A stretch of DNA of 64,000 nt from an uncultured Gemmatimonadota bacterium (GCA_951812955.1 OX638340.1:608001-672000), one strand, 5' to 3'; numbered from the stretch's first letter, positions 11,486 through 44,948 are shown. Made by a program: numbers and translations. The notes: generated by a model from the sequence alone, not told the origin.

Positions 11486-12277
11486 CTATCCCGAGGCGAG
11501 AATGGGATGCAACGGTCCACCGAACGGCTCGCCCGGTTTCAGTGTCTGGTCGCCTCCTGCGTCCCATCGGCCGTTGTAGTTCACGTATTCGGGAATATAG
11601 ATGATCGCCAGGGCTCTCCTGGGCGAATCGGTACGGTTCGATGTGGCGTAATGGAACGTGCATCCGTGATGAAAGGTGACGCCGCCTGCTTCCATTTCCA
11701 TTATGACGGGTTCAACCTCGTCATCGACGTCCGTACCTTCGATTTCTTTCAGTACGCTCGCACCCTCCGTACTCAAGGGCACGGGCGCCAGCCGGCCGTA
11801 TTGGTGCGAGCCTGGTATGAACTGCATGCAGCCGTTGTCTACAGTGACATCGTCCACGGCGATCCAGGCCGACAGCGCACCCACCTGCTCCATGGGCCAG
11901 TAAGGAGCGTCCTGATGCCAGTTGGTTTCCTTGCTCCGCTCGCCACCAGGCTTGATCAGTCCATGGTCATGGTAGATGACCAGGCGTTTGCACTTCGATA
12001 TCTTACGGGCGATCTCCGCCAGGCGCGCGTCAAAGGAATACTTGCGGATTACTTCGTGGTCCACCCACAGGTTGACCATCTGGTTGAATACGCGGTTGTA
12101 ATCCTCGTCCGTTTCACGCCCGCCGCCCAGTATGCGTTCCCTCTTCTCCGCTACCGTTTTGTCCAGCGCTTCTCTCAGTTCCGTCACTTCATCCTTCGAG
12201 AAGAACCTCGGAATCCGGAGATAACCATTCTCCTGAAAAAACTCAACCTCTTCGGCGCCAATGTGATTTGGATTCAT
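11486..12277 (-). CDS. PhyH-family Fe(II)/2-oxoglutarate-dependent dioxygenase (paralog 1 of 4).
   Basis: HxD facial-triad motif in WHQDAPYW and a distal His in FHHGCTFH. 263 aa. Confidence 0.7.
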   Translation of the reverse strand: MNPNHIGAEEVEFFQENGYLRIPRFFSKDEVTELREALDKTVAEKRERILGGGRETDEDYNRVFNQMVNLWVDHEVIRKYSFDARLAEIARKISKCKRLVIYHDHGLIKPGGERSKETNWHQDAPYWPMEQVGALSAWIAVDDVTVDNGCMQFIPGSHQYGRLAPVPLSTEGASVLKEIEGTDVDDEVEPVIMEMEAGGVTFHHGCTFHYATSNRTDSPRRALAIIYIPEYVNYNGRWDAGGDQTLKPGEPFGGPLHPILASG

Positions 12278-12501
12278 GTTAACGTAGAACCCGGGATTTA
12301 ATCGAATAAATCATATATAATCCTGGTCAACACAAATCAACAATAATAAACGTTTCAATGTCACAATCCGCACAAATCAAGTAATTTAACATTCGGTCTA
12401 TATTTATCAACCCTTTTCAAGTAGAAAGGGATATTTTACTTTATTGAACCGTACCGAAAACGCTTCGAATTTCGAATTCGTACCGCCGCAAGGAGCCGAC
12501 C

Positions 12502-13479
12502 ATGCCGCAAGACCGTTATCAAATCGGTGTCCAGGACTATATCGACTACCACCGGGATGGCTACCTGGTTGCCCGGGGACTCGTACCCGACACGGAAGTG
12601 GAGGAAATCCGCCGCCATACCGAGGAACTGATGCATGGCAGGATCATCATCGACGGTGTTGAGCCACCGCCGCCTGGCCTTACTCCCGAGCAGATGGGGC
12701 AGCACTGGCTGCGTATACACATGCTCCACCGGAAGCATGAACTGCATGAACGGTACCTGCTGCAACCCCGGATTCTGGATGTGCTAGAAGCCCTGATCGG
12801 TCCCGATGTGTCGGCGCTCCAGACCATGTTGTTTCTCAAGCCGCCGGGACGTGAGGGCCAGGGTTACCACCAGGACGCCTACTATATCCCCACCTATCCC
12901 GATACGCTGATCGGTTCGTGGCTGGCCGTGGATCCGGCGGATGAAGAGAATGGCTGCATGAAGGTCATACCGGGATCACACCATGAACCAATCTATCCGG
13001 ACGAAAACAAGCTGGGCCAAAACCATACCGACGGATCCATCGAGGATCTTGCCGTGATCGCGGGCGCCAGCGCGACGGATGAATCCGTGAACGGACTGAC
13101 GCCTGTCGCGGCAAAATACGGTGGCCGCGAGGTGGCTGCCTGCATGGCCCCGGGCGACGTCCTGTTCTTCCACAGCCATCTCCTGCACCGGTCGCACGCC
13201 AACCGGACGCAGACGCGTTTCCGCAGGGCCTTTGTAAGCCACTATTGTAACGCGAGGTCATTGGTGCCGTGGAACCACGGCGCCGAATTCGAGGGGACGA
13301 CCGCGAACAATCTCCATATCCTCGCCCGGGGAAATACTCACCTTGACTACGCGTTGCCGAAGTTCGGCACCCCGTGCGACGCGCTCAATCCCAGGGAGAC
13401 GGCCCGGGGTGTCCGCCCGGCGCGCATGATGGGCGGCATGCCTGCTTCGACCGTAAAGGGTGTTATGGTAACACGCTGA
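12502..13479 (+). CDS. PhyH-family Fe(II)/2-oxoglutarate-dependent dioxygenase (paralog 2), divergent from paralog 1.
   Basis: GYHQDAYY (HxD) and FHSHLLHRS (distal His). 325 aa. Confidence 0.7.
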   Translation: MPQDRYQIGVQDYIDYHRDGYLVARGLVPDTEVEEIRRHTEELMHGRIIIDGVEPPPPGLTPEQMGQHWLRIHMLHRKHELHERYLLQPRILDVLEALIGPDVSALQTMLFLKPPGREGQGYHQDAYYIPTYPDTLIGSWLAVDPADEENGCMKVIPGSHHEPIYPDENKLGQNHTDGSIEDLAVIAGASATDESVNGLTPVAAKYGGREVAACMAPGDVLFFHSHLLHRSHANRTQTRFRRAFVSHYCNARSLVPWNHGAEFEGTTANNLHILARGNTHLDYALPKFGTPCDALNPRETARGVRPARMMGGMPASTVKGVMVTR

Positions 13480-13564
13480 TCACTGGCAGGCCGGGCCGGT
13501 GATGGCTTTTAATGTAAACGGTGACCGGAAAGATCGTTTCAACGCGGTCGGAATGCCGCATGCC

Positions 13565-14845: not shown

Positions 14846-14867
14846 AGATCCCTTACCAGCCAGGTGT

Positions 14868-15213: not shown

Positions 15214-16584
15214 TTATCTTCCCGCCTTGTCCCTGGCCAACGAAAGATCCCGGATCGTGGTCTCGAAAAGCGTATCCAGCGAGGACCTGACCGCGTCGAT
15301 CCTGAGACGCCGTATCAGGTCCGCCGCAAACCCGTAGGTGAGTAGACTGCATGCGCTGTCGTGTGACAGACCGCGGGTTCGCAGGTAGAAAATCTGGTCT
15401 TCGTCGAGCTGGCCCACGGTGGCGCCATGGGTGCATTTCACCTGGTCCGCGTAGATTTCGAGCTGCGGCTTGGTGTGTATCATCGCATCGGGCGACAGCA
15501 TCAGATTCTTGTTCAGTTGCTTGGCATCCGTTTCCTGGGCGTCCTGGTGGACGAACACTTTGCCGTTGAATACTCCGCGCGACCGGCCTTCAAGGATGCC
15601 CTTGTAAACCTCGTAGCTATCGCAGTTGGGTACGGCATGATCAATCGCGGTGTGATTGTCCACATGCTGATTTCCCGTAACCAGGAACAGTCCGTTCATG
15701 CGAACCACCGCGTGCTCGCCGTCAAGTCGGGCATTGGTGTCGTTGCGGGTCAACGCGCCGCCCATGCACATGTTGAAGGTTGAGATCCGGCCGTTCCCTT
15801 CCAGGTGCAGTTGTGTGGTGGAAAGGTGCGCGGCTCCGGCGCCTTCCCGGTTGATCCGGTAGTGATCCACGTTGCCGTCCCGGCCCACGGCGATCTCAGT
15901 CACCGCGTTGGTCAGGTAAGCCTGTTCGGTGAGCCCGGTATAGCTTTCGACCACTTTGAGGCTCGCGCCGTCGCCCGCCGCGATGAGCGTACGCGGCTGC
16001 GTGGCCAATGGCGTATCATGACCGGCGGTGACGTAGTGGACGTGCACGGGCGTTTCAAGGTGCCCGCCACGGGGTACATAAACGAACAGCCCATTCTCGA
16101 AGAGTGCCGAGTTCAAGGCCGTCAGGCCGGTTCGTTCAAACTCGGCATATCGTGCAAGGTGAGGACGAACCAACTCCGGGTGTTCGACCAGCGCTTCGGC
16201 AAGGGTGCTCACCACGGCGCCACCGGGCAGGCCGTCTACACGCGACAACGCGGGCGAGAACACACCGTTCACAAAAACCAGCCGGTGCCAGTCGTCCTGA
16301 CCGAATTCGTAAGGCGCAAGCGCGGCCTCATCGAGTCGAGCTTCTACCGGCCCTGCGTGATAGGATGTTTCCGCGATGCCTCGAAGATCGGTGTATACCC
16401 AGTCTTCCCTGAGCGGGAAGGCAATCTCACGTGCGACCGGCATCCCCAGTTCCCTGAAGTGCGCCATGGCATCCGAGCGAAGCCGGTGCAGCCACAACGG
16501 CGCGTCCTGGGACAGGACACGGTCGAAAGCATCATAGAACGTGGTGTAACGAGCCGTCTCTGCCTGTTTTATTGCTTCTGTCAT
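15214..16584 (-). CDS. sufD: Fe-S cluster assembly protein SufD.
   Basis: SufBD beta-helix domain. Start chosen at the internal ATG (MTEAIKQ), which gives a 28-nt gap to sufC. The longer ORF would overlap sufC. Confidence 0.8.
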   Translation of the reverse strand: MTEAIKQAETARYTTFYDAFDRVLSQDAPLWLHRLRSDAMAHFRELGMPVAREIAFPLREDWVYTDLRGIAETSYHAGPVEARLDEAALAPYEFGQDDWHRLVFVNGVFSPALSRVDGLPGGAVVSTLAEALVEHPELVRPHLARYAEFERTGLTALNSALFENGLFVYVPRGGHLETPVHVHYVTAGHDTPLATQPRTLIAAGDGASLKVVESYTGLTEQAYLTNAVTEIAVGRDGNVDHYRINREGAGAAHLSTTQLHLEGNGRISTFNMCMGGALTRNDTNARLDGEHAVVRMNGLFLVTGNQHVDNHTAIDHAVPNCDSYEVYKGILEGRSRGVFNGKVFVHQDAQETDAKQLNKNLMLSPDAMIHTKPQLEIYADQVKCTHGATVGQLDEDQIFYLRTRGLSHDSACSLLTYGFAADLIRRLRIDAVRSSLDTLFETTIRDLSLARDKAGR

Positions 16585-16612
16585 TTCGTGTTCCCGTTCT
16601 CCCTGTGATCGC

Positions 16613-17377
16613 TTAACCGGCTGCTTCCACTTCCTCCCGAATCCACTCGTAACCTCGTTCTTCCAGCTGGAGAGCGAGGTCTTTTTCACCAGACTTGACG
16701 ATCCGGCCCTCGTACATGACGTGCACGTAGTCCGGCACCACGTAATCCAGCAGTCGCTGGTAGTGGGTGATGACGATCATCGCATTGTCGGCTGATCGCT
16801 GCTGGTTGATCCCGCGCGCCACGATCCGCATGGCATCGATGTCCAGGCCGGAATCGGTCTCGTCCAGTATGGACAGAGTCGGCTCGAGCACGGCCATGTG
16901 GAAGATCTCGTTGCGTTTCTTCTCGCCGCCGGAGAAGTCCTCGTTCACCGGCCGCCTCGCCAGATCGGGGTCCATGTCGACCTGCTTCATCTTTTCGTTC
17001 ATCAACCGGCGGAACGCACCAGCGCTCATCTCCGACTCGCCCCGGTACTTCAGGCGCTCGTTCAGCGCGGCCCGCAGGAAGTAGGCATTGCTTACGCCGG
17101 GAATCTCGACGGGATACTGAAAGGCCAGGAACATGCCCTCGTTAGCCCGCTCCTCGGGTGTCAGCTCGAAGAGGTCCTTGCCATGGAACCGTACCGTGCC
17201 ACCGGTCTCCGCGTATTCCTCGTGGCCGGCCAGGATTTTGCCCAGGGTACTTTTGCCGGATCCGTTGGGACCCATGATCGCGTGCACCTCGCCCCGGTTG
17301 ACCGTCAGGTCGATCCCGTTTATGATGTCCAGGTCCTTGATGCCGCCGCGCAGATTTCTGATTTCCAGTAATGCCAT
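16613..17377 (-). CDS. sufC: Fe-S cluster assembly ATPase SufC.
   Basis: Walker A GPNGSGKST. ABC signature FSGGEKKR. 254 aa. Confidence 0.9.
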   Translation of the reverse strand: MALLEIRNLRGGIKDLDIINGIDLTVNRGEVHAIMGPNGSGKSTLGKILAGHEEYAETGGTVRFHGKDLFELTPEERANEGMFLAFQYPVEIPGVSNAYFLRAALNERLKYRGESEMSAGAFRRLMNEKMKQVDMDPDLARRPVNEDFSGGEKKRNEIFHMAVLEPTLSILDETDSGLDIDAMRIVARGINQQRSADNAMIVITHYQRLLDYVVPDYVHVMYEGRIVKSGEKDLALQLEERGYEWIREEVEAAG

Positions 17378-19675: not shown

Positions 19676-20758
19676 ATGCCCAAGAAACTGGATGTACGCA
19701 TGATACCCGGCACCCGTTCCGTCGACGCGCTGACTGGCGAAGGCTATTTCCCTGTCATCACCTGTCTGGGTGGCAATGAACTGCTCCTGGCCTACCGGGC
19801 CGGCGCAGCGCACATGGGCCTGGGCGGCCGGCTGGACGTGAGACGGTCGGTCGACGGGGGCCTTAACTGGACTGCGCCTGTGACCGTGGCCGACAGCGAA
19901 AGGGACGACCGTAACCCCGCGCTGGGTCTGGCGCCGGACGGTACGCTTGTACTGGCCTATCACTGGCAGGGGTCCTACGATGACGAAGGCGCATGGAAAC
20001 TGGAATTGGGCAGGGCCGATACTCGGGTCGTATTCTCCGAGGATGGCGGCCATACCTGGACCGGTGACGAGCTCATCGATTTCACTCCGATCAACGGCGC
20101 CTCGCCCTTCGGCAAGATCTTCACGGTAGACGGCGTCATGCACATGCTGATCTATGGCGGTTCGCCCTGCTGCGAGGCCGGATCTGGAACGGTCAGGGTC
20201 GGGCCGGCTTCGACGCCGACGTACATCCTCAGATCCAGGGACAACGGGCGATCCTGGGGGGATCCCACGCTGGTCGCACTGGGACTCAACGAATCGGACG
20301 CAGCCATCCTACCCGACGGCCGCTGGCTCTTCGTCGCCCGTTCCGAGGACCGCGCCGAACAGGCGCTTTATGCCTGCGTTTCTGAGGACGGCGGGTACAC
20401 ATGGCGCAACGTGGGACGGGTCACGGACGCAAAGGAACATCCGCCGGACATCACCCTGATGTCCAACGGATGGCTGCTGCTGCTCTTCGGGCGACGGCAT
20501 CCTCCCTTCGGCGTGGAGGGCCTGATCAGCCGGGACGGCGGGATGACCTGGGATGATCGAAGACTGGTTCTGGACGACTCCCTGCCCGGCGGCGACATCG
20601 GTTATCCCTCCACTGCCCGCCTCGAAGACGGTCGTCTGGTTACCGCCTATTACACCGCGGGAACAGCGGAGAGAAAGTGGGAGATGTTCCGTGCCGCAGA
20701 CGTAGCATGCAAGGTCGTGTCTTACGACGAGTCCAGCCTTATTGATCACTGGAGCTAA
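19676..20758 (+). CDS. BNR/Asp-box repeat sialidase-fold (six-bladed beta-propeller) glycoside hydrolase-like protein with no signal peptide.
   Basis: Five Asp-box SxDxGxTW repeats (SVDGGLNWT, SEDGGHTWT, SRDNGRSWG, SEDGGYTWR, SRDGGMTWD). 360 aa. The N-terminus is not hydrophobic. Confidence 0.65.
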   Translation: MPKKLDVRMIPGTRSVDALTGEGYFPVITCLGGNELLLAYRAGAAHMGLGGRLDVRRSVDGGLNWTAPVTVADSERDDRNPALGLAPDGTLVLAYHWQGSYDDEGAWKLELGRADTRVVFSEDGGHTWTGDELIDFTPINGASPFGKIFTVDGVMHMLIYGGSPCCEAGSGTVRVGPASTPTYILRSRDNGRSWGDPTLVALGLNESDAAILPDGRWLFVARSEDRAEQALYACVSEDGGYTWRNVGRVTDAKEHPPDITLMSNGWLLLLFGRRHPPFGVEGLISRDGGMTWDDRRLVLDDSLPGGDIGYPSTARLEDGRLVTAYYTAGTAERKWEMFRAADVACKVVSYDESSLIDHWS

Positions 20759-20806
20759 ATATCGTAATGCGCTGTCCAAGAGCAGGTTACGTATCAGGAA
20801 CCTTGT

Positions 20807-21937
20807 GTGAGACTCGTTGATTCCGGTGAAATCCGCGACGGCCGTGCCATCCCGGATCACCGCAGGAACTGCGCCTTCACCACCATCAACAGGCTGAACG
20901 ACGGCACGATCCTCGTTTCAGGCCGGTGGGGAACGGCGCGGGATTCGGTGGACGGGCACGCCTGCATCTGGGCCACGTCGGACACCGGCCGTACCTGGCG
21001 CCTTCGATATGACGGAAACGGGAAGGGGACTTGGGACGGAACAGCGGGTGAAGTCAAGGGACTGACGAGTACGGAGCTGTCCCCAGGCACGCTCACGGCG
21101 ACGGCCCTGTGGGTCGACCGTTCCAATCCGGATCTTCCTTTCATCCATCCGGAAACGCAGGGCCTGCTGCCCATGCGCATCATGCACGTCGACTCGGGGG
21201 ACGGTGGCCGCACATGGGGTCCGCCGCGCCGAATGGACACAACGCCCCACCTCGCCGCTTCCCCCTGTTCACACCATATCATCCGGTTGTCCGGCGGTAC
21301 CCTTGTCCAGCCCTACGAACAGTGGAAGGAATACGGGGACACGTCGCCGGGCCGGCCCGCCGCGAGGCTGCGGTTATCACGGGACGGTGGGCGTAGCTGG
21401 CCGGATTTCGTCACCGTGGCCCGGCATCCGGACAACAAGCTCGCCTACTGGGACCAGCGGCTGGCTGTCCATCCCGTTGACGGCCGCCTGGCCGCCACCT
21501 TCTGGACCCACGATTTCGATGCGGGCGTCGACATCGACATCCATATCGCCTACGGGTCGCCGGACGGCCGTGCGTGGACGATCCCCCGCGGCACCGGACT
21601 TCCCGGCCAGCACTGCCAGCCCCTCGCCCTTGGTGGGGATCGCCTGCTGGCCGCTTATCCGCGACGCGGGGATCCTCCCGGCATCGTGCTTTCCATCAGC
21701 GAGGATTTCGGCGAAAGCTGGGACCGGAGCCGGGATCTCCTAGTCTACGACAGCATCGCCGGCAATGAGTCCGGATCCCGCGGCAGCCGTACGCAGTCCG
21801 AATTGTGGGGTGACATGGAGCGCTGGCGCTTCGGACATCCCCGGATGGTGCGATTGCCGGACGACGAGGTGTTCGTCGTCTACTACGCGGGAGATGATGC
21901 CGTCAAGACCGCGCGGTGGGCGAGGGTCCGCGTTTAG
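20807..21937 (+). CDS. Second BNR/Asp-box sialidase-fold protein, tandem to the first, also without a signal peptide. GTG start.
   Basis: Asp boxes SDTGRTW, SGDGGRTWG, SRDGGRSWP, SPDGRAWT, SEDFGESWD. 376 aa. Confidence 0.65.
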   Translation: MRLVDSGEIRDGRAIPDHRRNCAFTTINRLNDGTILVSGRWGTARDSVDGHACIWATSDTGRTWRLRYDGNGKGTWDGTAGEVKGLTSTELSPGTLTATALWVDRSNPDLPFIHPETQGLLPMRIMHVDSGDGGRTWGPPRRMDTTPHLAASPCSHHIIRLSGGTLVQPYEQWKEYGDTSPGRPAARLRLSRDGGRSWPDFVTVARHPDNKLAYWDQRLAVHPVDGRLAATFWTHDFDAGVDIDIHIAYGSPDGRAWTIPRGTGLPGQHCQPLALGGDRLLAAYPRRGDPPGIVLSISEDFGESWDRSRDLLVYDSIAGNESGSRGSRTQSELWGDMERWRFGHPRMVRLPDDEVFVVYYAGDDAVKTARWARVRV

Positions 21938-22009
21938 CCCGGCTTCGACACTGTCTGCAGGGCAGTGCCGCTGAGGATACGGTCCGACGATCAGTGCAGC
22001 GCCTGGGGT

Positions 22010-22083
22010 GAACGACTCTGGCTCAGCCTCGCACATCCCGCCAGAGCCGCGCTTGCGGCGTTCGATCCGGGCTCAGCCCCTCA
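22010..22083. repeat. Two copies of an imperfect 25-bp direct repeat 49 bp apart. Copy 2 is the 3' end, including the stop codon, of the enolase-superfamily gene. Copy 1 is intergenic.
   Basis: ggctcagcctcgcacatcccgccag (22010-22034) versus ggctcagcccctcacatcccgccag (22059-22083). A small hairpin (gccgcgcttgcggc) lies between them. Confidence 0.6.
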
Positions 22084-23263
22084 CATCCCGCCAGGGACGA
22101 ACCATAATCCGCTCGAAACCTGCCGGATCGATGTCCACGCCGAGTCCCGGGCCCGGTGGTACCGCCACGCAGCCGTCCTCATCCAACACAAAAGGCTCGG
22201 CGAAATAACCCTTGCCGATGAACGTCCGCCCATCCTCGCGCCAGCAATTCACTTCATTGTGTTCCTGGACCAGGAAGTTCGACGCGCAGGCGTCGATCTG
22301 AATGGATGCGGCGAGGGCCAGCGGGCTTAAGGGGCAGTGCAGGGCGAGTTTCGCATAGGCGCTTTCACCCATCACCGCGATCTTGTGACACTCGGTGATG
22401 CCGCCGGCGTGGCACAGGTCCGGCTGCATCACGGACAGGGCGTTCTTGCGCAGGGCGTCGTAGAAGATCCACTTGCCCATCCAACGTTCGCCGGCTGCGA
22501 TAGGGATTTCGCTGTTGCGCGCGATGTCCGCGAGCACGTCGACCCGTTCCACGGGCATGGGTTCCTCGATGAACAGGGGCCGGTGCGGCGTCAGGGCCGA
22601 TATCATCTGTTTGGCCATCACGGGGTGTGGATTATGGATATCCACGGCCACTTCCACATCGGGCCCGGCGCCCCTGCGCACGGCGGCGAAGGCTTCGGCG
22701 ATCCGCTCCACCTCCGAGGTGGGTTCCAGTCCGGTGCCCATGCCCACGTGCAGCTTCATGCACCGGAAGCCCCACTCCTCGACAATGACCCTGGCCGCCT
22801 CCTCATGCGCCCCGGGAAAATCCACGTCCGGGTCATACGAAGGATGATAACCCGCGTCGTAGGGCTGCCCGGGTTCCACGTACCAGGGCAGTTGTCCCCC
22901 CACAGCGCGGTACATGCGTATCCGGTCGCGGCAGGCTCCGCCAAGCATGGCATGGACCGGAAGCCCTGCGGCTTTGCCGGCAAGGTCCCAGAGCGCCATG
23001 TCGATTCCGCTGATCGCGCTCATCTTCACCGGTCCGCCGACATATCCCGAACCGCCCTCGTACATGGTATGCCAGAGCGACTCGACGCGGCAGGGGTCTT
23101 TCCCGACAAGCAACGGCTCCAGGCGCCGCACCTCGGCGATGACGCTTTCCGGGTGGTTTTCCAGGTAGGGTTCGCCCCAGCCGAACAGTTCGGTGTCCGT
23201 GTGGATCTTCAGCCATACCCAACTCGGCGGAACGCGCAGGATTTCGAAGTGAGTGATTCGCAT
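22073..23263 (-). CDS. Enolase-superfamily (mandelate racemase/muconate lactonizing enzyme) sugar-acid dehydratase, D-mannonate/D-galactonate dehydratase-like.
   Basis: 396 aa. MR/MLE N- and C-domain motifs (GWGEPYLENH, MKLHVGMG, VDIHNPH, FIEEP, MQPDLCHAGGITE). Confidence 0.75.
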   Translation of the reverse strand: MRITHFEILRVPPSWVWLKIHTDTELFGWGEPYLENHPESVIAEVRRLEPLLVGKDPCRVESLWHTMYEGGSGYVGGPVKMSAISGIDMALWDLAGKAAGLPVHAMLGGACRDRIRMYRAVGGQLPWYVEPGQPYDAGYHPSYDPDVDFPGAHEEAARVIVEEWGFRCMKLHVGMGTGLEPTSEVERIAEAFAAVRRGAGPDVEVAVDIHNPHPVMAKQMISALTPHRPLFIEEPMPVERVDVLADIARNSEIPIAAGERWMGKWIFYDALRKNALSVMQPDLCHAGGITECHKIAVMGESAYAKLALHCPLSPLALAASIQIDACASNFLVQEHNEVNCWREDGRTFIGKGYFAEPFVLDEDGCVAVPPGPGLGVDIDPAGFERIMVRPWRDVRG

Positions 23264-23340
23264 GCTCGGCTTTGCTCCCTGTTCTTGATGGCATCATGTT
23301 CTGACGGTATCACAAATCGTGCAATGGCCAGGACGCCTAC

Positions 23341-31262: not shown

Positions 31263-31460
31263 GGATTCCAGGCTCCCGACTCTATAGTTTCCATCGTTCG
31301 AATGCACATCAGGACTGTATACACATATCGCGTTGATTTATTCAATCTATCCGCTTCGAAAATACGGTTGAAAACCGGGTTGACAATAGAATTCGGCAGG
31401 GTTCTGATCGCGCGGGCAAAGAGGTTGACGGCAATACCCGCGAATCTATATTCATAAAGC

Positions 31461-33417: not shown

Positions 33418-33433
33418 GGTTGGTTTTATTCCG

Positions 33434-34183
33434 TTGCGGCCCGAGAGGGATGATATGGTGTTGGACTCCTCGCAGAAAAGATTCTTCATCGATTTCGGTT
33501 ACCTCGTCCTGCCCGGTCTCATGCGTGAGGAGGCACCGTGGATCATCGAAGAATTCGAGCGCGTGTTTGCCCGGGCCGGTGTCGTACATGACGGCAGCAA
33601 GCGGTCGAGCCTGGGACCCTTCATCGAACGCAGCGCCCGCCTGTGTTCGATGCTGGACAACCCGAAGGTCAACGGACTGCTCGCAGGCCTCCTGGGAGAG
33701 GACTTTAACTACCTGGGCAGCGGCGGCGAGTTGTACGTCGGCGACGGCATGTGGCATCCGGACTGTCATGGAGACCCGATACGCCAGCTCAAGTGGGCAA
33801 TGTATCTCGATCATCTGACCCAGAATACGGGCGCCCTGAGACTCGTCCCGGGTTCCCACCGGCACGGATGGCAGGGTAATCTCGACACCCAGGCGCTCTG
33901 GGGCATCGGCATGGAGGATGTCCCCTGCGTCGCCCCCGACAATGCGCCGGGCGACGTGATCGTGTTCAACCAGATGACCCTGCACAATGCCCTTGGCGGC
34001 GGTAATCGCCGGCGCATGTTGAACCTATTGGCCTGCTCATCGTGCCGTACGGAAGCCGAACTGGATTTTCTCAAGCGCAGACTTCCGGCTTCCCGCGCGG
34101 AACTGCATTGGGAGATCATGCGCGGTACCGCGACGGCCGAACGCATGCGCCACCTGGAGCAACCATGGACCCTGCTGAGCTGA
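33434..34183 (+). CDS. PhyH-family Fe(II)/2-oxoglutarate dioxygenase (paralog 3). Its 3' end overlaps the IlvD/EDD dehydratase start by 19 nt.
   Basis: WHPDCHGD (HxD), LRLVPGSHRHGW and a distal His (TLHNALGG). The Met at 33455 is an alternative start. Confidence 0.65.
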   Translation: MRPERDDMVLDSSQKRFFIDFGYLVLPGLMREEAPWIIEEFERVFARAGVVHDGSKRSSLGPFIERSARLCSMLDNPKVNGLLAGLLGEDFNYLGSGGELYVGDGMWHPDCHGDPIRQLKWAMYLDHLTQNTGALRLVPGSHRHGWQGNLDTQALWGIGMEDVPCVAPDNAPGDVIVFNQMTLHNALGGGNRRRMLNLLACSSCRTEAELDFLKRRLPASRAELHWEIMRGTATAERMRHLEQPWTLLS

Positions 34184-35853
34184 CCGGAGTTGACAAGAAC
34201 CTGACCCGGTACGGAGATACGGAGTTCAGCCGGTACATGCGCAGGGCCTTCCTGTCCTCCGCGGGCTACGACGCCGATGATCTCAACCGGCCGATCATCG
34301 GCATCGCCGATACCTCATCGGATTATACGACCTGCCATCGGGACATGCCCGCGCTGTTGGAGGGCGTCCGGAGAGGAATCACCCAGGCGGGCGGACTCGC
34401 CCTCGCATTTCCCACGATCTCGCTGGCCGAAACCCAGTTGTCCCCCACGTCCATGCTGTTCCGCAACCTGATGGCCATGGGCACGGAGGAAATGATCCGG
34501 TCACAGCCAATGGACGGCGTCGTGCTGCTCGGGGGTTGCGACAAAACCGTACCTGCCCAGCTCATGGCCGCCGTCTCCGCCGGTGTCCCCGCGATCTCGC
34601 TCGTAACCGGCGCCATGCGCACGGGCAGCTGGCATGGCGATCGCCTCGGCGCCTGTACGGATTGCCGGCGTTACTGGCTGCGGCATCGCGCCGGCGAGAT
34701 CGACCGGGAGGAAATCGGTGAAATCGAACAGGCCCTGTGCCCAACGGGCGGAACGTGCATGGTCATGGGCACGGCCTCCACCATGGCCTGCATAACGGCC
34801 ACCCTGGGCCTGATGCTGCCCGGAGGAGCCACGCCGCTTTCCGGATCGGCGGACCGACTCAGGCAGGCGGTGATGACGGGGAGACGCATAGTCGAATTGG
34901 CAAGAGACGGCCAGTCACCGGACAGGTTTCTGACCGGGGCTTCTTTCAACAACGCGGCCATCGTACTCGCCGCGCTGGGAGGCTCCACCAACGCCGTGAT
35001 ACATCTCATCGCCATCGCACGGCGGGCGGGGGTCGAACTTACGCTGGAAGACCTTCACGACGCAGCGCGTGAAACCCCGGTGCTGGTGAACTGCAAGCCC
35101 GTGGGTACGGGATACATGGAAGACTTTCACAAGGCGGGCGGCCTGCCCGTACTGTGGAAGGCCTTGCAGTCCAGGCTGAACCTGGATGCGATGAACGTGA
35201 ATGGCTTGGCACTGGGAGAGATGCTGAAGGATACGCCGGCGCCGGCCGGGTGGCAGGATAACATCGGCACGCTGGAACACCCCATCGGCCCGCCCGGTGC
35301 GCTGGTCGTCCTGCGCGGTACACTCGCACCCGACGGTGCGCTGATCAAACGGGCCGCGGCTGCTTCGGACCTGCAGCGGCACCGGGGTCCGGCGGCCGTA
35401 TTCGAGTCACCCGACGACGTTGCGGCCCGGATCGACGACCCGGTATTGGGATTGACCCCCGATCACGTCCTCGTGATGCGGAATGCCGGTCCCGTGGCCA
35501 TGGGCATGCCGGAGGCCGGTTCGCTTCCCATACCGGCCTACCTGGCGAAAAAGGACGTCGTGGACATGGTGCGCGTTTCCGATGCGAGGATGAGCGGCAC
35601 GGCCTACGGCACGGTCGTGTTGCACTGCTGCCCTGAAGCCGCCGTGGGCGGTCCGCTGGCGCTCGTAAGAGACGGAGACCTCATCGAACTAGACGTGGCG
35701 CAACGGCGCCTGGACCTGTGCGTATCCGAGGAAGAATTGACCCGGCGAAAAACCAGTCACGTACCTCCCCCTTCGCCCGAAAGAGGGTGGCGCAGGCTAT
35801 ACGCCGAACATGTCCTTCCCGCGCACCTGGGCGCCGACCTGGATTTTCTCTAG
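34165..35853 (+). CDS. IlvD/EDD-family dehydratase (sugar-acid / dihydroxy-acid dehydratase, e.g. arabinonate/xylonate/gluconate dehydratase-like).
   Basis: Family blocks IGIADTSSDYTTCH, GGCDKTVPAQLMA, CPTGGTCMVMGTASTMA, SDARMSGTAYGTVVLHCCPEAAVGGPLAL. The ATG at 34165 is preferred over the longer ORF. Confidence 0.85.
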   Translation: MDPAELTGVDKNLTRYGDTEFSRYMRRAFLSSAGYDADDLNRPIIGIADTSSDYTTCHRDMPALLEGVRRGITQAGGLALAFPTISLAETQLSPTSMLFRNLMAMGTEEMIRSQPMDGVVLLGGCDKTVPAQLMAAVSAGVPAISLVTGAMRTGSWHGDRLGACTDCRRYWLRHRAGEIDREEIGEIEQALCPTGGTCMVMGTASTMACITATLGLMLPGGATPLSGSADRLRQAVMTGRRIVELARDGQSPDRFLTGASFNNAAIVLAALGGSTNAVIHLIAIARRAGVELTLEDLHDAARETPVLVNCKPVGTGYMEDFHKAGGLPVLWKALQSRLNLDAMNVNGLALGEMLKDTPAPAGWQDNIGTLEHPIGPPGALVVLRGTLAPDGALIKRAAAASDLQRHRGPAAVFESPDDVAARIDDPVLGLTPDHVLVMRNAGPVAMGMPEAGSLPIPAYLAKKDVVDMVRVSDARMSGTAYGTVVLHCCPEAAVGGPLALVRDGDLIELDVAQRRLDLCVSEEELTRRKTSHVPPPSPERGWRRLYAEHVLPAHLGADLDFL

Positions 35854-35949: not shown

Positions 35950-36696
35950 ATGGCTGAAAACCGATTTGATCTGAAACTGCGCCGAGATGAACTGGCGCGG
36001 GAAAACGGCTTCGCCGTGTGGAGAACCATCATCACAGATACGACCTGGGACCCGTCACAGACCGCCCTTGTGTTGTGCGACATATGGGATTCGCACTGGT
36101 GCCGCGGAGCAGTCGAGCGGCTGAACGCCATGACCCCTCGGATGAACGACGTGGTGACCGCCTGCCGAGACCGGGGCATTCTGATTGTTCACGCCCCATC
36201 CGACACGCTGGAATTCTACAGGGATGCCCCGGCAAGAAAAAGGGCCGAGTCGGTGCCGGTCGTGCATCCACCGCCGGACCGCGATCTGCCGGATCCCCCG
36301 CTCCCGGTCGATGCATCCGACGAAGGTGCGGATACGGGCGAGACGAAAACCTTCAGCGCATGGTCCCGCCAGCATCCGGATATCTTCATCGACCAGGACA
36401 AAGATCTCATGTCCGACAACGGTCCGCAGATCTATGCCTGCTTCCAGCACTACGGAATACGCAACATGCTGATGATGGGCGTACACACAAACATGTGCAT
36501 CCTCCATCGATCCTTTGGGATAAAGCAAATGGTCCGCTGGGGCGTTCCCGTGGCGCTGGTACGCGACCTCACCGATATCATGTACAATCCCGCGATGCCG
36601 CCCTACGTCAGTCATGAAGAAGGCACGCGCCTGGTGGTATCTTTCATCGAGAAGCACTGGTGCCCCACCGTACACAGTTTGGAAATCCTGCCGTAA
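35950..36696 (+). CDS. Isochorismatase-family (cysteine hydrolase) protein.
   Basis: ALVLCDIWDSHW resembles the LLVIDMQNDF block. GVHTNMCIL resembles the catalytic-Cys block GVxTNxCV. Assignment by eye only. Confidence 0.5.
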   Translation: MAENRFDLKLRRDELARENGFAVWRTIITDTTWDPSQTALVLCDIWDSHWCRGAVERLNAMTPRMNDVVTACRDRGILIVHAPSDTLEFYRDAPARKRAESVPVVHPPPDRDLPDPPLPVDASDEGADTGETKTFSAWSRQHPDIFIDQDKDLMSDNGPQIYACFQHYGIRNMLMMGVHTNMCILHRSFGIKQMVRWGVPVALVRDLTDIMYNPAMPPYVSHEEGTRLVVSFIEKHWCPTVHSLEILP

Positions 36697-36768: not shown

Positions 36769-37728
36769 ATGAAGCGCAGGCTGGACCTACTGTCCGTGGG
36801 GGACGGAAATCTTGACGTCTGGATGCGCGTGCCGCGCCATACCGGCGGTCTCACGGGAGGCGTGCGGGAAACCGGCATTGTCGGCGACGCCTGCCGGATC
36901 GGACCTGGGGGAGCGGCCGCGAACGTGGCCATAGGGATGGCGCGGCTCGGCGCGCGCACGGCCTTTGTCGGCGCGATCGGCGACGACACGCCCGGTGCGC
37001 AGTTCGCGGATAACATGCGGGAACACGGCGTTGATGTATCCCATCTCCACGTCATGGCCGGCCAGGCGACTTCCCTGGCCTGCATGTTCGAGACGCCCGA
37101 CCGGGAGTACGCGTTCTACGTGTGCCCGGGTCCCAGGTCCATTCCTTCCCACCGCCTCCCAAGCGGTTTCGTCCGGTCGGCACGTATCCTTTACGTAACC
37201 GGCCATGTGCTTACCGAAGAAGAAGCGACCTGCGATGTCATAATCGACGCGATGGCAACGGCACGCGATGCCGGCGTGACGGTAGCGCTGGACCCTGGAA
37301 AGTACTGGCTCAATCCCTCGCTGGAATCCCGTGTGCATGAGGCTGTGAAGCTGACGGACATCATCCTGCCCAACCGCATGGAAGCGGAGCGACTCACGGG
37401 CCGGCGCACTCCCCGTGACGCCGCCGGCGACCTGCTGGCGGCGGGTGTCGGCATTGTAGCCGTGACGATGGGTGACGGGGGCTGCCTGGCGGCGTGTGCA
37501 GACCGCATGATCGAGCGGTCCGCATACCGAACCGGGATCGTTTCCACGGTAGGCGCCGGCGACGCATTCGCCAGCGGGATGCTCTACAGTTTCCTCGCGA
37601 AGGAGAGCCTGGAGGACATGGCGTCTTTTGCGAATGCCGCGGCGGCCATCAAGATAGGCACACCCGGTGCGGCGGAAGGGATGCCCGGCGCGGATGAGGT
37701 CAGGTCGTTTCTGCGGGTAAACGCTTAA
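36769..37728 (+). CDS. PfkB-family sugar kinase (2-dehydro-3-deoxygluconokinase / ribokinase-like).
   Basis: N-terminal GG motif (IGPGGAAANVA). C-terminal anion-hole motif VSTVGAGDAFASG. Confidence 0.8.
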   Translation: MKRRLDLLSVGDGNLDVWMRVPRHTGGLTGGVRETGIVGDACRIGPGGAAANVAIGMARLGARTAFVGAIGDDTPGAQFADNMREHGVDVSHLHVMAGQATSLACMFETPDREYAFYVCPGPRSIPSHRLPSGFVRSARILYVTGHVLTEEEATCDVIIDAMATARDAGVTVALDPGKYWLNPSLESRVHEAVKLTDIILPNRMEAERLTGRRTPRDAAGDLLAAGVGIVAVTMGDGGCLAACADRMIERSAYRTGIVSTVGAGDAFASGMLYSFLAKESLEDMASFANAAAAIKIGTPGAAEGMPGADEVRSFLRVNA

Positions 37729-39053: not shown

Positions 39054-40841
39054 ATGATAAGAAAACACCATTTTGCCGTCACTGCACTATGCCTGTGTCT
39101 CACCGGAAAAGCCGCGGGTTCGGATGTCGTTATATCGGAGGTCCTGGCCGATCCTCATACAGAATCAAAAGGCGAGTTTGTCGAACTCTACAACGCGGGA
39201 GACGAACCGGTTGATCTCGACGGATGGCCCCTCGGTGATTCAAGGGATGTGAACGATACGATCATGGACTTCACCGGCCCACATGACATCGGCCTCGCAG
39301 GTACCGTACTGGCGCCGGGTGCATACGCGCTCGTCGTGGATCCTGATTACGAAGGAGCATACAACGTCCGGGTCGGCGTGGAAGGCGATCCCGCGAGCCT
39401 CCTTATGCTGACGGTCAAGGGCGACCGTACCCTTGGCAATGGGCTCGGCAACAGCCAGGACCTGGTCTTCATAAAGAAAGACGATATCACGATCGACCAG
39501 TTCGCATGGACCGAATCGGCGGGCGGTAACGGCATCTCCTGGGAGCGGACGCGATTGGACTTGCCCGTGGATGCAGCCAATCTCTTGTCGTCCGAACATC
39601 CCGATGGTTCGACTCCGGGGTTCAGAAACAGCACGTCGAACGATCCGCCTGCCGCACCGGAGCCGGAGGAACCCGGGGAACCGATCGTTCCAGAAGAACC
39701 GCATGAACCTGGCGGACCGGAGGACCCCGCCGAACCGACGGAGCCGGAAACGCCCACCGGGCCTGTTGATCCCGCCGAACCGGACGAGCCTGTCGAGCCC
39801 GGGGAGCCCGACCAGCCTGCTGAACCGACGGAACCCGGGGTGCCCGGGGATCCGGACGAGCCTGTCGAGCCCGGTGAGCCCGACGAACCGAACGAGCCTG
39901 TCGAGCCCGACGAGCCTGCTGAACCGCAGGAGCCCATGGACCCCGAAAAAACCGACGGGCCGACGGAGCCGGAAACGCCCACCGGGCCCGTTGATCCGTC
40001 GGAACCGATGCCTCCTCAGAACGCCGACCGGTCCTTGGAAAACGTGTTTATCAATGAAATCATGTTCAACCCGGGTCCGAACCGAACAGAATGGATTGAA
40101 TTACACAACAGGGGAAGGACCGAGATTGATCTTGCCGGCAGTATGCTGAGGCTGGATCACGTTGACCGGACGCGGCTCATTTCCTCGGATCGCCTCGTGA
40201 TCGAAGGCCAGGGGTTTCTCGTCATTGCGCACGACGCGGTCCTGTTCCATGAGACGTATCCCGGATTCGCAGGAATCGCGGTGGAAGCGGTGGGCGGTTG
40301 GGAGCGACTCCGAAACAGCGGTGCAAGGTTGTTGCTCCTGGATGCAGGTGGCAAAACCATACACGATGCGGAGTACGACGAGGAATCAAATCCCGATCCA
40401 GGCCGTTCCGTGGAACTGGTAAACCCGGACTTCGAGCCACAGATCTGGGGGCCTTCTGCCGATCCCGAAGGGAGCACTCCGGGCCGGAGGAACGCGCTGA
40501 ATGTAACTCATATCCCCGACGGAGTTTCGCTCCACGTCGCCAACAATCCATTCTCCCCGGATGGCGACAATTATGAGGACATTTGCCTGGTGACTGTTGA
40601 ACTGCCCGCATCCCACGGCATTCTGCATGCCATGGTTTTCGATATCAGCGGTCGATTTCTCAAAACGCTCATTAATCAGACTGCCGTAGCCAGCCGGCAT
40701 GTATTCTCCTGGGACGGAACGGATCAACACGGACGCAGCCTGCCCGTCGGTCCGTACATTCTATACGTGGAACAGATGCTGCCCACACTCGACAGGCTGA
40801 CGGCTTCCAAGCACGTGGTTGTGATCGCATCTTCGCCATGA
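39054..40841 (+). CDS. Secreted multidomain protein: signal peptide, lamin-tail domain (LTD), Pro/Glu-rich (EPxEP) repetitive linker, second LTD, and a C-terminal FlgD-Ig-like / T9SS-type (Por) sorting domain.
   Basis: Signal peptide MIRKHHFAVTALCLCLTGKAAG. LTD motifs VVISEVLADP...EFVELYN and VFINEIMFNPG...EWIELHN. A linker of about 110 aa built of PEP/EPT repeats, with a duplicated segment PTEPETPTGPVDP. C-terminus NPFSPDGDNYEDICLVTVELP...VFDISGRFLKTLIN...WDGTDQHGRSLPVGPYILYV. Confidence 0.7.
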   Translation: MIRKHHFAVTALCLCLTGKAAGSDVVISEVLADPHTESKGEFVELYNAGDEPVDLDGWPLGDSRDVNDTIMDFTGPHDIGLAGTVLAPGAYALVVDPDYEGAYNVRVGVEGDPASLLMLTVKGDRTLGNGLGNSQDLVFIKKDDITIDQFAWTESAGGNGISWERTRLDLPVDAANLLSSEHPDGSTPGFRNSTSNDPPAAPEPEEPGEPIVPEEPHEPGGPEDPAEPTEPETPTGPVDPAEPDEPVEPGEPDQPAEPTEPGVPGDPDEPVEPGEPDEPNEPVEPDEPAEPQEPMDPEKTDGPTEPETPTGPVDPSEPMPPQNADRSLENVFINEIMFNPGPNRTEWIELHNRGRTEIDLAGSMLRLDHVDRTRLISSDRLVIEGQGFLVIAHDAVLFHETYPGFAGIAVEAVGGWERLRNSGARLLLLDAGGKTIHDAEYDEESNPDPGRSVELVNPDFEPQIWGPSADPEGSTPGRRNALNVTHIPDGVSLHVANNPFSPDGDNYEDICLVTVELPASHGILHAMVFDISGRFLKTLINQTAVASRHVFSWDGTDQHGRSLPVGPYILYVEQMLPTLDRLTASKHVVVIASSP

Positions 40842-41905: not shown

Positions 41906-42001
41906 TTTCCGGCCGGAGGGGTTTCTCCCGGATTGCCGCCCAACGCGGAAAACCGGTCGGAATACCGAACGCGGGATTAACCAGTTTCATGGAGGAAAAG
42001 G

Positions 42002-43120: not shown

Positions 43121-43173
43121 GCTGGGACCATAAGCGGAAACGGTAACGTCCGCTGGGACATCTTCCGGCCGAA

Positions 43174-43887
43174 TCATTCGAAGACGCCTGCAATTCGGGC
43201 TATCCACCCGGTCGATGCGTCACAGTACAACAGGTCGTTGCCGCATCGCGCCAAACCGTGCGGTTCCGGAAGGTCCGGAGCGATTTGTATCTCGTCGCGC
43301 ACATCACCGGTTTCGATGTCCAGTTTGGCAACGACACGGTCCATCTTGAAGACCATCCACAGGGCATCGTCCTCGGTCCTTACGACACCGTGACCGGCGT
43401 CGTAAGGCAGTGGGATGACCCTTTTTACCGACCAGTCCGGGATACGGACCTGGGTGAGTGTTTTTTCCTTGAGCGTGCTCAGCCAGATCGTGCCCGTTTC
43501 CACTGAATCATAATCCAGGCCATGGGTGCCGCCAGGCGCGGGAAGCGATCGGCGAAGCAGCGTTGCTCCTGTCAGGGGATCGACCTTGAGGATCTCGCCC
43601 GTACCGGACGGGGCATCCGTATGCTTCGGGAAGCGCCACCGTTCGCCCGGTCCGTTCGCGGCCAGCCAGAGACCGCCCTCGCCAAACGACATACCGCTTG
43701 TATTGGAAGATTCCGTAGGCAACTCGCGGATTATCCTGGAGACTCCGTACTCGTGGGGGGCTTCAAGGGCCAGTAGCGCTACTCGATCGGTTAATTGATC
43801 CACGACCCACAGGCCTTCATCGGTGACCTGCAGTCCATTGGGCGCTCCGTAAGGCGCGCGCATGTAACGGGTGATTTCGGGATTCAT
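43174..43887 (-). CDS. Small beta-propeller protein (SMP-30/gluconolactonase-like or NHL-repeat-like). Function unknown.
   Basis: 237 aa. PNGLQVTDEGLWVVDQ and repeated Gly/Asp-rich strands. No signal peptide. Weak assignment. Confidence 0.35.
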   Translation of the reverse strand: MNPEITRYMRAPYGAPNGLQVTDEGLWVVDQLTDRVALLALEAPHEYGVSRIIRELPTESSNTSGMSFGEGGLWLAANGPGERWRFPKHTDAPSGTGEILKVDPLTGATLLRRSLPAPGGTHGLDYDSVETGTIWLSTLKEKTLTQVRIPDWSVKRVIPLPYDAGHGVVRTEDDALWMVFKMDRVVAKLDIETGDVRDEIQIAPDLPEPHGLARCGNDLLYCDASTGWIARIAGVFE

Positions 43888-43979
43888 GGAATGTTCCGTG
43901 GTTATTGACGCTCGACATTAGATTCCAGGTGCTTCATACGCCCGGATGCCCGACCTGATATTGCACTCGTATGTCCTGG

Positions 43980-44948
43980 TTACTTTCGATCCTTGAGACG
44001 GGTCCAGCCTCTACCCGGGTTATATGGCTTCGCTTCGTGAAAACGGTCTCGTAATTCCTTGAAAGCGTCGGGCGTTCTGACCTCCCGTTCGGGATGACTC
44101 GAATCCCTGATTACGAAGTCCGCCTCGCTCGGATAGCAGGCCATGGTTACCGGGTCCCGTTCCGGAGTATAGGATTCCGGATCCTCCTCCGCGTTATTCG
44201 GCGCATCCATGGACTGATATCTAAGGTCCACGCTCCAGCGTACGATATCGGACCGGTTCACGAAGGAGGCATGAGGCGTCAGATTAGTCATGAACAGGAC
44301 GTCGCCCAGTTTCATCTGCAAAGGTACGGGATCGCGCCCGGGCAATTCGTCGGCCGGGATTTCCAGGTAGCCGCCGTGCCCACCGGTGTAATGTTTGAAT
44401 ACACCATTTTCATGGGCGCGCGGAATCACGTACAGACAGCCGTTTTCTACCGTCGTATCAACCAGCGGGATCCAACAGGTCACGATAAGGTACCGGTCGC
44501 AGTGGGGCAGGAAATAACCCGAGTCCTGGTGCCAGGGTACTTCCGTTCTCGTGTATTCCGGGATCTTCGGACGAATTCTGTACGCGGAAGCGCCCACGAT
44601 GTCCGGCCCGACCAGGTCGTTAACACAATCTACCAGGTTGTCGTTCCGCAACAGACCGAGCATCTCTTCCCCGCTGAATCCGCCCCCTCCCCGTCCCATG
44701 ATCATCTTCATGATCTCCTGCCCGGCTTCTTCGGATTCTTCGTATACACGCGCGAGACGGGTCTCGAATCCTGATGCTTCGTACAGATCGGACAACTTTC
44801 CTTCGCGGTGCAGACGGTGCGCTCCGTCTGCCACTATTTCGCCCAACGCGGCAATCAACGGCCGCAGTTCATCCCGCTCCAGCAGTCCTTCTTTGACCAG
44901 ATATCCCTGCGTGTTGAAATGTGCGATTTCCGTTTGTGCAAGTCCCAT
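43980..44948 (-). CDS. PhyH-family Fe(II)/2-oxoglutarate dioxygenase (paralog 4).
   Basis: WHQDSGYF (HxD), distal LTPHASF. 322 aa. Confidence 0.7.
   Translation of the reverse strand: MGLAQTEIAHFNTQGYLVKEGLLERDELRPLIAALGEIVADGAHRLHREGKLSDLYEASGFETRLARVYEESEEAGQEIMKMIMGRGGGGFSGEEMLGLLRNDNLVDCVNDLVGPDIVGASAYRIRPKIPEYTRTEVPWHQDSGYFLPHCDRYLIVTCWIPLVDTTVENGCLYVIPRAHENGVFKHYTGGHGGYLEIPADELPGRDPVPLQMKLGDVLFMTNLTPHASFVNRSDIVRWSVDLRYQSMDAPNNAEEDPESYTPERDPVTMACYPSEADFVIRDSSHPEREVRTPDAFKELRDRFHEAKPYNPGRGWTRLKDRK

Follow-up and report, generated by a model that had tools for sequence, protein, structure and literature searches.

Four anciently diverged PhyH-family dioxygenase genes, predicted to be catalytically competent, on a chromosome segment of a Latescibacterota-like bacterium

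Background

What might four genes for PhyH-family Fe(II)/2-oxoglutarate (2OG) dioxygenases be doing within one short stretch of a bacterial chromosome, and do they belong together? The stretch, 64,000 nucleotides from an uncultured bacterium assigned to Gemmatimonadota (GCA_951812955.1 OX638340.1:608001-672000; hereafter, the window), carries the four genes at dispersed positions, and we refer to them in window order as P1, P2, P3 and P4 (Table 1). A first-pass annotation of this DNA had described them as paralogs that all retain an HxD...H iron triad, had pointed to an AT-rich spacer with short repeats between the divergent genes P1 and P2, had placed P3 in a shared pathway with an overlapping sugar-acid dehydratase gene, and had linked such enrichment to recalcitrant aliphatic or osmolyte-like substrates. 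The reading that we prefer, with a probability of roughly 0.55, is that P1-P4 are anciently diverged dioxygenases, predicted to be catalytically competent, and that each is a separate member of the large PhyH repertoire of its lineage, with carbohydrate-derived compounds as the likeliest substrates.

Results

Four genes with predicted intact active sites

All four open reading frames (ORFs) are present at the positions first annotated and score above the gathering threshold of the Pfam PhyH family (PF05721; 22 bits), which we took as the cut-off for membership, P3 being the weakest match of the four. Only the start of P3 was moved. Because ATG 33455 is preceded, at a distance of 6 nt, by the ribosome-binding site GAGAGGG, and the resulting product of 242 aa has the length of most of the 155 P3 homologs, this ATG is most likely the start, rather than TTG 33434. 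No fifth copy was found when the four proteins were compared by phmmer with all six-frame ORFs of the window.

We located the iron triad and the 2OG-binding arginine by a four-way alignment of P1-P4, in which the HxD motif, the distal histidine and a downstream arginine form invariant columns, the arginine sitting 9-12 residues past the distal histidine (residues in Table 1). The triad is thus kept in all four proteins, as had been annotated, and the arginine, whose loss was looked for as evidence against the assignment, is present in each. When P2 is aligned with human phytanoyl-CoA hydroxylase PHYH (2a1x), both proteins show HQD, and LHRS and FRRA in P2 stand opposite IHGS and FRKA in the human enzyme, whose counterparts of the catalytic residues we take to be H175/D177/H264/R275. 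In a family alignment of 46 sequences for P3, R186/R187 is invariant and H101, D103 and H177 are kept by 90% of the sequences or more, and the family profile lines up with the iron motifs of the ectoine hydroxylase EctD (WHSD, MHGS) and of SnoK. An AlphaFold model of P3 calculated from this alignment (pLDDT 95.5) predicts the double-stranded beta-helix fold of the PhyH type. As judged from their sequences, therefore, P1-P4 are PhyH-family dioxygenases whose metal- and 2OG-binding residues are intact. By analogy with other PhyH enzymes, Fe(II) would be bound in each by the HxD...H triad and 2OG by the downstream arginine, and O2 would be consumed in the hydroxylation or oxidative dealkylation of a small substrate, with succinate and CO2 released.

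Ancient divergence of the four proteins

In the four-way alignment P2, P3 and P4 are only 22-31% identical to P1, and mutual phmmer E-values among the four range from 1e-11 to 3e-4. Closer homologs are found in other phyla, at 52-60% identity for three of the four. Those of P1 reach 52-58% identity in metagenome-assembled genomes (MAGs) of Chloroflexota, Gemmatimonadota, Truepera and Pseudomonadota, and those of P4 (1680 homologs) reach 57-60% across Chloroflexota, Lentisphaerae and Zixibacteria. For P3 the named source organisms are Latescibacteria, Zixibacteria, Poribacteria and Planctomycetes, with a 46% identical homolog in Poribacteria. Because their mutual similarity is weak and closer homologs lie in other phyla, P1-P4 are not recent paralogs, and the duplication implied by that term was not borne out; they are better described as four ancient subfamilies standing side by side, with no local duplication. 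The P3 subfamily is small and distinct, with 969 clusters (50% identity) at E ≤1e-3 and 68 at E ≤1e-30 among 1.84 billion representatives.

The closest relatives of known structure also differ from protein to protein. P1 is nearest to SnoK (113 bits, E 1.7e-31), followed by MysH, EvdO2 and SnoN; P2 is nearest to human PHYH (83 bits over 257 residues, E 1.3e-22) and P4 to PHYHD1 (39 bits, E 4.6e-9). A search with the single P3 sequence retrieved only MysH (E 0.013), and further PDB entries were reached through the P3 family profile, whose top match is EctD. The solved members of PF05721 include human PHYH, PHYHD1 (2opw/3obz), EctD, SnoK/SnoN, EvdO1/2, HygX, MysH and the proline hydroxylase H11; no characterized one is close to P1-P4, and P3 differs from them in being unusually compact at 242 aa.

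Table 1. Coordinates of the genes and spacer discussed, with predicted catalytic residues of P1-P4
Feature	Coordinates	Strand	Length and scores	Predicted residues or position
P1, PhyH-family Fe(II)/2OG dioxygenase	11486-12277	-	263 aa; PF05721 135.8 bits	H121, D123 (HxD); H209 (distal His); R220 (2OG Arg)
P1-P2 divergent spacer	12278-12501		224 bp; GC 0.366	
P2, PhyH-family Fe(II)/2OG dioxygenase	12502-13479	+	325 aa; PF05721 139.5 bits	H123, D125 (HxD); H229 (distal His); R241 (2OG Arg)
D-2-hydroxyacid dehydrogenase (glyoxylate/hydroxypyruvate reductase-like)	32476-33417	+	Pfam 2-Hacid_dh_C 203.7 bits	directly upstream of P3
P3, compact, divergent PhyH-fold dioxygenase (predicted)	33434-34183 (ORF)	+	249 aa as ORF; PF05721 32.9 bits	counted from 33455: H101, D103 (HxD); H177 (distal His); R186/R187 (2OG Arg)
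IlvD/EDD-family dehydratase, sugar-acid branch (predicted)	34165-35853	+	562 aa; Pfam ILVD_EDD_N + ILV_EDD_C 322.8 + 184.1 bits	
Isochorismatase-like hydrolase	35950-36696	+	Pfam match	downstream of dehydratase
PfkB sugar kinase	36769-37728	+	Pfam match	downstream of dehydratase
Weakly virginiamycin-B-lyase-like protein	43174-43887	-	237 aa; Pfam Vgb_lyase 22.1 bits (cut-off 50)	92 bp downstream of P4
P4, PhyH-family Fe(II)/2OG dioxygenase	43980-44948	-	322 aa; PF05721 83.9 bits	H140, D142 (HxD); H226 (distal His); R237 (2OG Arg)

Tests of known PhyH functions

We used the NCBIfam cut-offs (equivalog, or subfamily in the case of TIGR01762) to test for specific functions. Against the EctD model (TIGR02408, cut-off 336.5 bits) P1, P2 and P4 score 43.4, 35.8 and 32.7 bits and P3 gives no match; a Pfam scan of 57 window proteins showed no ect genes either, and we rejected this identity. 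The best score against the chlorinating enzymes (Fe/2OG halogenases of the SyrB2/CytC3 type, TIGR01762) is 57.7 bits for P2 with a cut-off of 226.3. Halogenases have HxA/G in place of HxD and all four proteins keep the aspartate, so this identity was rejected as well. Two further candidates were discarded: the PhnY-type methylphosphonate/2-aminoethylphosphonate hydroxylase (NF052437; best 57.4 bits, P1, cut-off 500), with no HD hydrolase gene adjoining any of the four, and the 1-deoxypentalenic acid hydroxylase PtlH (best 29.8 bits, P4, cut-off 550). None of P1-P4 thus appears to have a known specific function by NCBIfam scores. Nor did the four cluster with one characterized housekeeping enzyme, an outcome looked for as evidence against the first-pass annotation.

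The aliphatic (phytanoyl-CoA-like) or osmolyte-like (ectoine-like) substrates first proposed could be defended by the match of P2 to human phytanoyl-CoA 2-hydroxylase, in which the catalytic residues are aligned, by the weak matches of P1, P2 and P4 to the EctD model and by the place of EctD at the top of the P3 profile search. However, the similarity of P2 to 2a1x is at the level of the family only, and the EctD scores of 33-43 bits are a small fraction of the cut-off. The Pfam scan found no ectABC, acyl-CoA ligase, 2-hydroxyacyl-CoA lyase, other acyl-CoA or beta-oxidation genes among the 57 window proteins, and the informative neighbors of homologs elsewhere are carbohydrate-related. The proposal therefore found no support beyond family-level resemblance, and we regard hydroxylation of such substrates as distinctly unlikely.

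A role in modifying the sugars of natural products is more improbable still. P1 has SnoK, MysH, EvdO2 and SnoN as its nearest solved relatives, and the top structural neighbors of the P3 model include SnoK, MysH, EvdO2 and HygX, so that tailoring enzymes of secondary metabolism (SnoK/SnoN, EvdO1/2, HygX or MysH-like) come to mind. Identity to those enzymes is nevertheless only about 20%, and no polyketide synthase, nonribosomal peptide synthetase, glycosyltransferase or other cluster genes were found by Pfam among the 57 window proteins. P1-P4 lie instead among a suf operon, phosphotransferase system (PTS) genes and rpoN, in positions kept as single genes across 13 genomes.

PF05721 enzymes of two distant clades have been reported to demethylate free 2'-O-methyl nucleosides, one bacterial (the FJS, Acidisoma, Poribacteria and S. 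colocasiae enzymes) and the other PHYHD1-like, from eukaryotes and a virus, whereas human PHYH was inactive on these substrates (Stonkus et al. 2025, PMC12709175). We compared P1-P4 by BLASTP with the reference sequences of that study, which were machine-read with errors from the supplement PDF. P1, P2 and P4 score 36-60 bits at 22-35% identity against either clade (best matches: P1 to hPHYHD1, 58 bits; P4 to the A. thaliana enzyme, 60 bits), and P3 gives no match below 1e-3. Mutual scores are 177-420 bits within each active clade and 30-52 bits between the two. Orthology of P1-P4 to the FJS/PHYHD1 demethylases was therefore rejected, although both belong to the same Pfam family and P4 shares the WHQDSGY-type iron motif.

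At least one of P1, P2 and P4 might still demethylate 2'-O-methyl nucleosides, or remove O-methyl groups from another sugar, and so salvage modified nucleosides with release of formaldehyde. The activity is spread over very distant PhyH branches, including a Poribacteria enzyme, that are no closer to one another than P1, P2 and P4 are to either, and the best solved relative of P4 is PHYHD1. On the other hand, no ortholog-level similarity is seen, and the closest solved relative of P2 is the inactive human PHYH. No nucleoside-salvage genes lie beside any of P1-P4; the gene for phosphoribosyl pyrophosphate (PRPP) synthetase, 2 kb away from P4, has the opposite orientation. We consider this assignment unlikely, but O-dealkylation of a sugar ether is plausible as chemistry for distant PhyH members.

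P3 and its dehydratase partner

The dehydratase gene begins at ATG 34165, 19 nt before the end of the P3 stop codon (34183), with TGGAG 5 nt upstream of the ATG, which confirms the overlap first annotated. The overlap is also found in two related loci, L001 (P3 81% identical) and L039 (73%), together with the order 2-hydroxyacid dehydrogenase, PhyH, IlvD/EDD dehydratase, isochorismatase-like hydrolase and PfkB kinase, the last two lying downstream of the dehydratase in both. A sigma-70-like site (TTGACG-16-TATATT, 31425-31452) precedes the co-directional run, which is headed by an LD-carboxypeptidase gene; we found no further promoter-like site on the + strand within the run, and its only terminator-like site on that strand is weak and falls within the 3'-terminal part of the dehydratase gene (35827-35842). 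Co-transcription of P3 and the dehydratase gene is plausible on this basis. In this clade only, P3 would probably be co-transcribed and translationally coupled with the dehydratase gene, in a run that also holds the 2-hydroxyacid dehydrogenase and PfkB kinase genes in the same direction.

The identity of the partner as a sugar-acid dehydratase was borne out by its NCBIfam match (NF004784, 743 bits against a cut-off of 539) and by its ranking of PDB entries. It scores 506 bits to 8ej0 and 471, 339 and 319 bits to the L-arabinonate (5j84), galactonate (7m3k) and D-xylonate (5oyn) dehydratases, compared with at most 285 bits to dihydroxy-acid dehydratases and 156 bits to Edd. Because the former scores are the higher, the partner can be assigned by sequence to the sugar-acid branch of IlvD/EDD, but it does not reach the L-arabinonate dehydratase equivalog (NF009559, 653.3 bits against 882). 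The NCBIfam matches of the 2-hydroxyacid dehydrogenase all fall under their equivalog cut-offs. We found no description in the literature of such a dehydratase gene overlapping a PhyH gene.

If the overlap reflects function, P3, the dehydratase, the 2-hydroxyacid dehydrogenase and the PfkB kinase might form a dedicated catabolic pathway for a modified sugar or sugar acid, in which P3 would hydroxylate or O-dealkylate the substrate and the product would then be dehydrated, phosphorylated and cleaved. The retention of the overlap and its internal Shine-Dalgarno site in three genomes at 73-81% identity would fit such a pathway, as would the sugar-acid branch of the dehydratase and the presence of galactonate dehydratase, UxuA-like protein, HpcH aldolase and GMC oxidoreductase genes within 12 kb. 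More distant P3 homologs lie beside MR_MLE, GFO_IDH_MocA, SDR and sugar-type ABC transporter genes, and the P3 family carries two extra invariant arginines, R50 and R129, that would suit an anionic substrate.

The association is nevertheless shallow. A P3 homolog with 65% identity follows a GFO_IDH_MocA gene and has no IlvD/EDD neighbor, and homologs at 56-59% stand in the order DUF4159, PhyH, fused sugar-type ABC binding protein/permease, second permease, and then SDR or MR_MLE. We probed 43 metagenomic loci of at least 6 kb carrying a P3-family gene for the neighbor families already seen. IlvD/EDD occurred in none of them (0/43), GFO_IDH, AKR and SDR in four each, sulfatase in three and MR_MLE in two. 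A deep link between P3 and IlvD/EDD was therefore rejected: the shared pathway first suggested by the overlap holds only within a shallow clade of at least 73% identity, the dehydratase neighbor being absent at 65% and in all 43 metagenomic loci. The gene order is also not functionally pure. The 2-hydroxyacid dehydrogenase gene adjoins the P3 homolog in L039, but one or two extra genes intervene in L001 and L002, and because an LD-carboxypeptidase gene and, in relatives, a Ppx-GppA gene belong to the run, it does not make a clean functional operon. Finally, a literature search gave no example of a PhyH-family enzyme whose substrate is a free sugar acid. A dedicated pathway thus seems doubtful.

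Two features of the relatives of this locus were seen in passing. A Ppx-GppA gene stands between the 2-hydroxyacid dehydrogenase gene and the P3 homolog at L001:8466-10004 and L002:5319-7940, with an added GFO_IDH_MocA gene in L002; the window (33418-33454) and L039 have neither insert, which amounts to an indel polymorphism in the supposed operon. The DUF4159-PhyH context recurs at L040:1746-8063, L041:4817-10903 and L049:1773-8060, with a fused SBP_bac_1/BPD_transp_1 protein of ~800 aa.

The P1-P2 pair and its spacer

P1 and P2 diverge, as annotated, across a spacer that is the most AT-rich intergenic stretch of the window: its GC content is the lowest of 27 intergenic stretches of at least 60 bp and compares with 0.595 for the window as a whole. 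The order RsbU-like response-regulator phosphatase, STAS, P1, divergent P2 and convergent SufS is kept in 13 species-level genomes, and P2 orthologs 83-98% identical occur in at least 13 Latescibacterota-like genomes. Further away the two genes part. A 73% identical P2 ortholog in a groundwater Latescibacterota MAG lies between Zn-ADH and MR_MLE genes with a P3-like PhyH gene next door, and a 67% identical P1 ortholog follows a SASA-family esterase gene without P2 nearby. Because these orthologs sit in other contexts, the pairing of P1 and P2 appears to be shallow synteny.

The short repeats noted in the spacer are present, but the conservation expected of regulatory elements was not seen. The window holds CACAAATCAA at 12331 and 12371 only, and TTCGAATTTCGAATTCG lies at 12464-12480. 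An exact repeat of at least 10 nt arises in 5% of shuffles of the spacer itself, and 8 bp, the length of the perfect palindrome in the spacer, is the commonest palindrome length in such shuffles. In an alignment of 14 orthologous spacers, the second copy of CACAAATCAA and TTCGAATTTCGAATTCG are conserved only in relatives whose P1 and P2 are ~97-98% identical. Because they lack wider conservation, CACAAATCAA and TTCGAATTTCGAATTCG are unlikely to be regulatory elements and, being only marginally unusual for the local composition, they were rejected as such.

Other parts of the spacer are conserved among the 14. The blocks lie in the P1-proximal two-thirds (12296-12425) and comprise CATATATA, the 20-mer ACAAATCAACAAYAATAAAC, which occurs only once in the window, and TCAACCYCTTTTCA; AGGAG, the Shine-Dalgarno sequence of P2, is conserved as well. 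These blocks are probably promoters or operators, to judge by their conservation. A terminator-like hairpin at 12411-12430 is not conserved in the relatives and was set aside. No match to the sigma-54 promoter consensus was found in the spacer, and the count of such matches across the window is at chance level. Neither the Rfam nor the tRNA scan gave a match anywhere in the window, so the AT-rich spacer is without a known RNA family.

Directly downstream of P1 on the same strand (5960-11346, -) runs a series of genes for, in this order, a STAS protein, a response-regulator PP2C phosphatase with a SpoIIE domain, an RsbW-like HATPase_c_2 protein, a Peripla_BP_6 binding protein and a sensor histidine kinase, which together look like a partner-switching signaling module.

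The P4 locus

P4 lies 77 bp downstream of ptsI, and both ptsI and the small protein encoded downstream of P4 (Table 1) are kept in L001. P4 looks like a conserved stand-alone enzyme.

PhyH enrichment

Four PhyH genes among ~57 make up roughly 7% of the window genes. PF05721 has been reported in >1.9% of poribacterial genes and in <0.049% elsewhere, most of the poribacterial PhyH functions being given as unknown (Kamke et al. 2014, PMC3909097). Even at the poribacterial density, with ~1.1 copies expected, a Poisson estimate for at least four copies is roughly 0.03, and the enrichment, which the first-pass annotation had also remarked on, is far above chance for an average bacterium. As a phenomenon, PhyH expansion is already known from the work on Poribacteria. 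Like the window, these sponge-associated marine carbohydrate degraders hold many diverse PhyH genes per genome, P3 homologs among them, but the lineage of the window is Latescibacterota-like, with some MAGs labeled Gemmatimonadetes. Two publications on Latescibacterota and PAUC34f genomes make no mention of PhyH.

Multiple PhyH genes were also observed elsewhere. At least two occur in 7 of the 43 metagenomic P3-family loci. In a 6.5-Mb genome (L004:2806-10583) seven stand in tandem, interrupted by a single Amidohydro_2 gene and flanked by genes for a GH31/36-NPCBM glycosidase, an SGL lactonase-like protein, an aldo-keto reductase and a sulfatase. Four tandem P4-like genes, 29-32% identical to P4, lie on a Dehalococcoidia MAG chromosome (L036:9689-13644).

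Lineage and chromosomal setting

An exact-sequence look-up of P2 gave no recorded entry. In a scan of species-representative genomes, a 98% identical copy of P2 was found on a 3.9-Mb MAG chromosome (OY762445.1) and copies at 83-87% in a dozen further MAGs labeled Candidatus Latescibacterota, Gemmatimonadetes or "bacterium". The isolate names IRC1_bin, APA_bin and SB0665_bin presumably denote sponge-metagenome bins, going by the names only. By these matches the window is assigned to a Latescibacterota-like MAG lineage of marine type, in which each of P1-P4 appears to hold a fixed chromosomal position.

The window is ordinary chromosome and not an island. Its housekeeping genes include a suf operon with an Rrf2 regulator, PRPP synthetase, GcvT, ptsI-ptsH-hprK, rpoN, lptB/lptA, lipid-A and CMP-KDO genes and UvrD. 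Interleaved with these are sugar-acid genes, which encode two BNR_2 proteins, a UxuA-like protein, a galactonate dehydratase (345 bits with an NCBIfam equivalog cut-off of 311), an HpcH aldolase, a GMC oxidoreductase with its small subunit, the 2-hydroxyacid dehydrogenase, IlvD/EDD dehydratase and PfkB kinase of the P3 run, and a TRAP DctP binding protein. P1-P4 would form no single system, each holding its place among housekeeping and sugar-acid genes.

Several other features of the window were noted. The two BNR_2 (sialidase-like) genes adjoin one another and are followed by the galactonate dehydratase gene and then the gene for the UxuA-like TIM-barrel protein (19676-24318). The SufC ABC ATPase ORF (16613-17377) overlaps the longest SufB/D-family ORF (15214-16689, GTG start) by 77 nt on the - strand (15214-17377), and the true start of the latter gene probably lies further in than this GTG. 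A 595-aa protein (39054-40841) combines lamin-tail domains with a FlgD Ig-like domain, and a 771-aa protein (61255-63570) fuses an MFS transporter to HEAT repeats. Two intervals of GC 0.57-0.61, 52134-52668 (535 bp) and 53725-54435 (711 bp), hold no convincing gene in a rough gene call and gave no Rfam or tRNA match.

Discussion

What the four enzymes act on can be approached through the neighbors of their homologs, which include IlvD/EDD, MR_MLE, GFO_IDH_MocA, SDR, AKR, sugar-type ABC transporter, GH31/36, sulfatase, SGL and SASA esterase genes. Because these neighbors are often carbohydrate or sugar-acid genes, we tentatively suggest, with low confidence, that the substrates are polar and carbohydrate-derived, that is, sugars, sugar acids or glycosides.

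Four observations weigh against our preferred reading of P1-P4 as separate members of a large repertoire acting on such substrates. The LD-carboxypeptidase and Ppx-GppA genes in the P3 run may mean that housekeeping genes are simply packed closely together here and that no catabolic operon exists. In the majority of the 43 metagenomic loci with a P3-family gene no probe gene was seen, the probe set consisting of families already seen. The neighbors of P4 in three other phyla are unrelated to each other. Lastly, the large repertoire of the lineage is extrapolated from one window and from other phyla.

A bolder suggestion is that the P3 subfamily (242-280 aa, ~1000 clusters at 50% identity) might be an unrecognized class of catabolic oxygenases acting on free modified sugars or sugar acids, in which O-demethylation or C-hydroxylation would feed dead-end sugars into dehydratase, kinase and aldolase routes and the coupling to IlvD/EDD would be one instance. 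We hold this to be unlikely as well, but a possible action of the compact P3-type enzymes on modified sugars or sugar acids is the one thread here that deserves experiment.

As it stands, the window adds four uncharacterized members to a very large family, together with synteny within one candidate lineage. If the link to carbohydrates is true, these genes would represent an oxygen-dependent step in the breakdown of modified marine sugars by abundant uncultured bacteria, and would help to account for the place of PhyH among the families most expanded in sponge-associated and pelagic heterotrophs.

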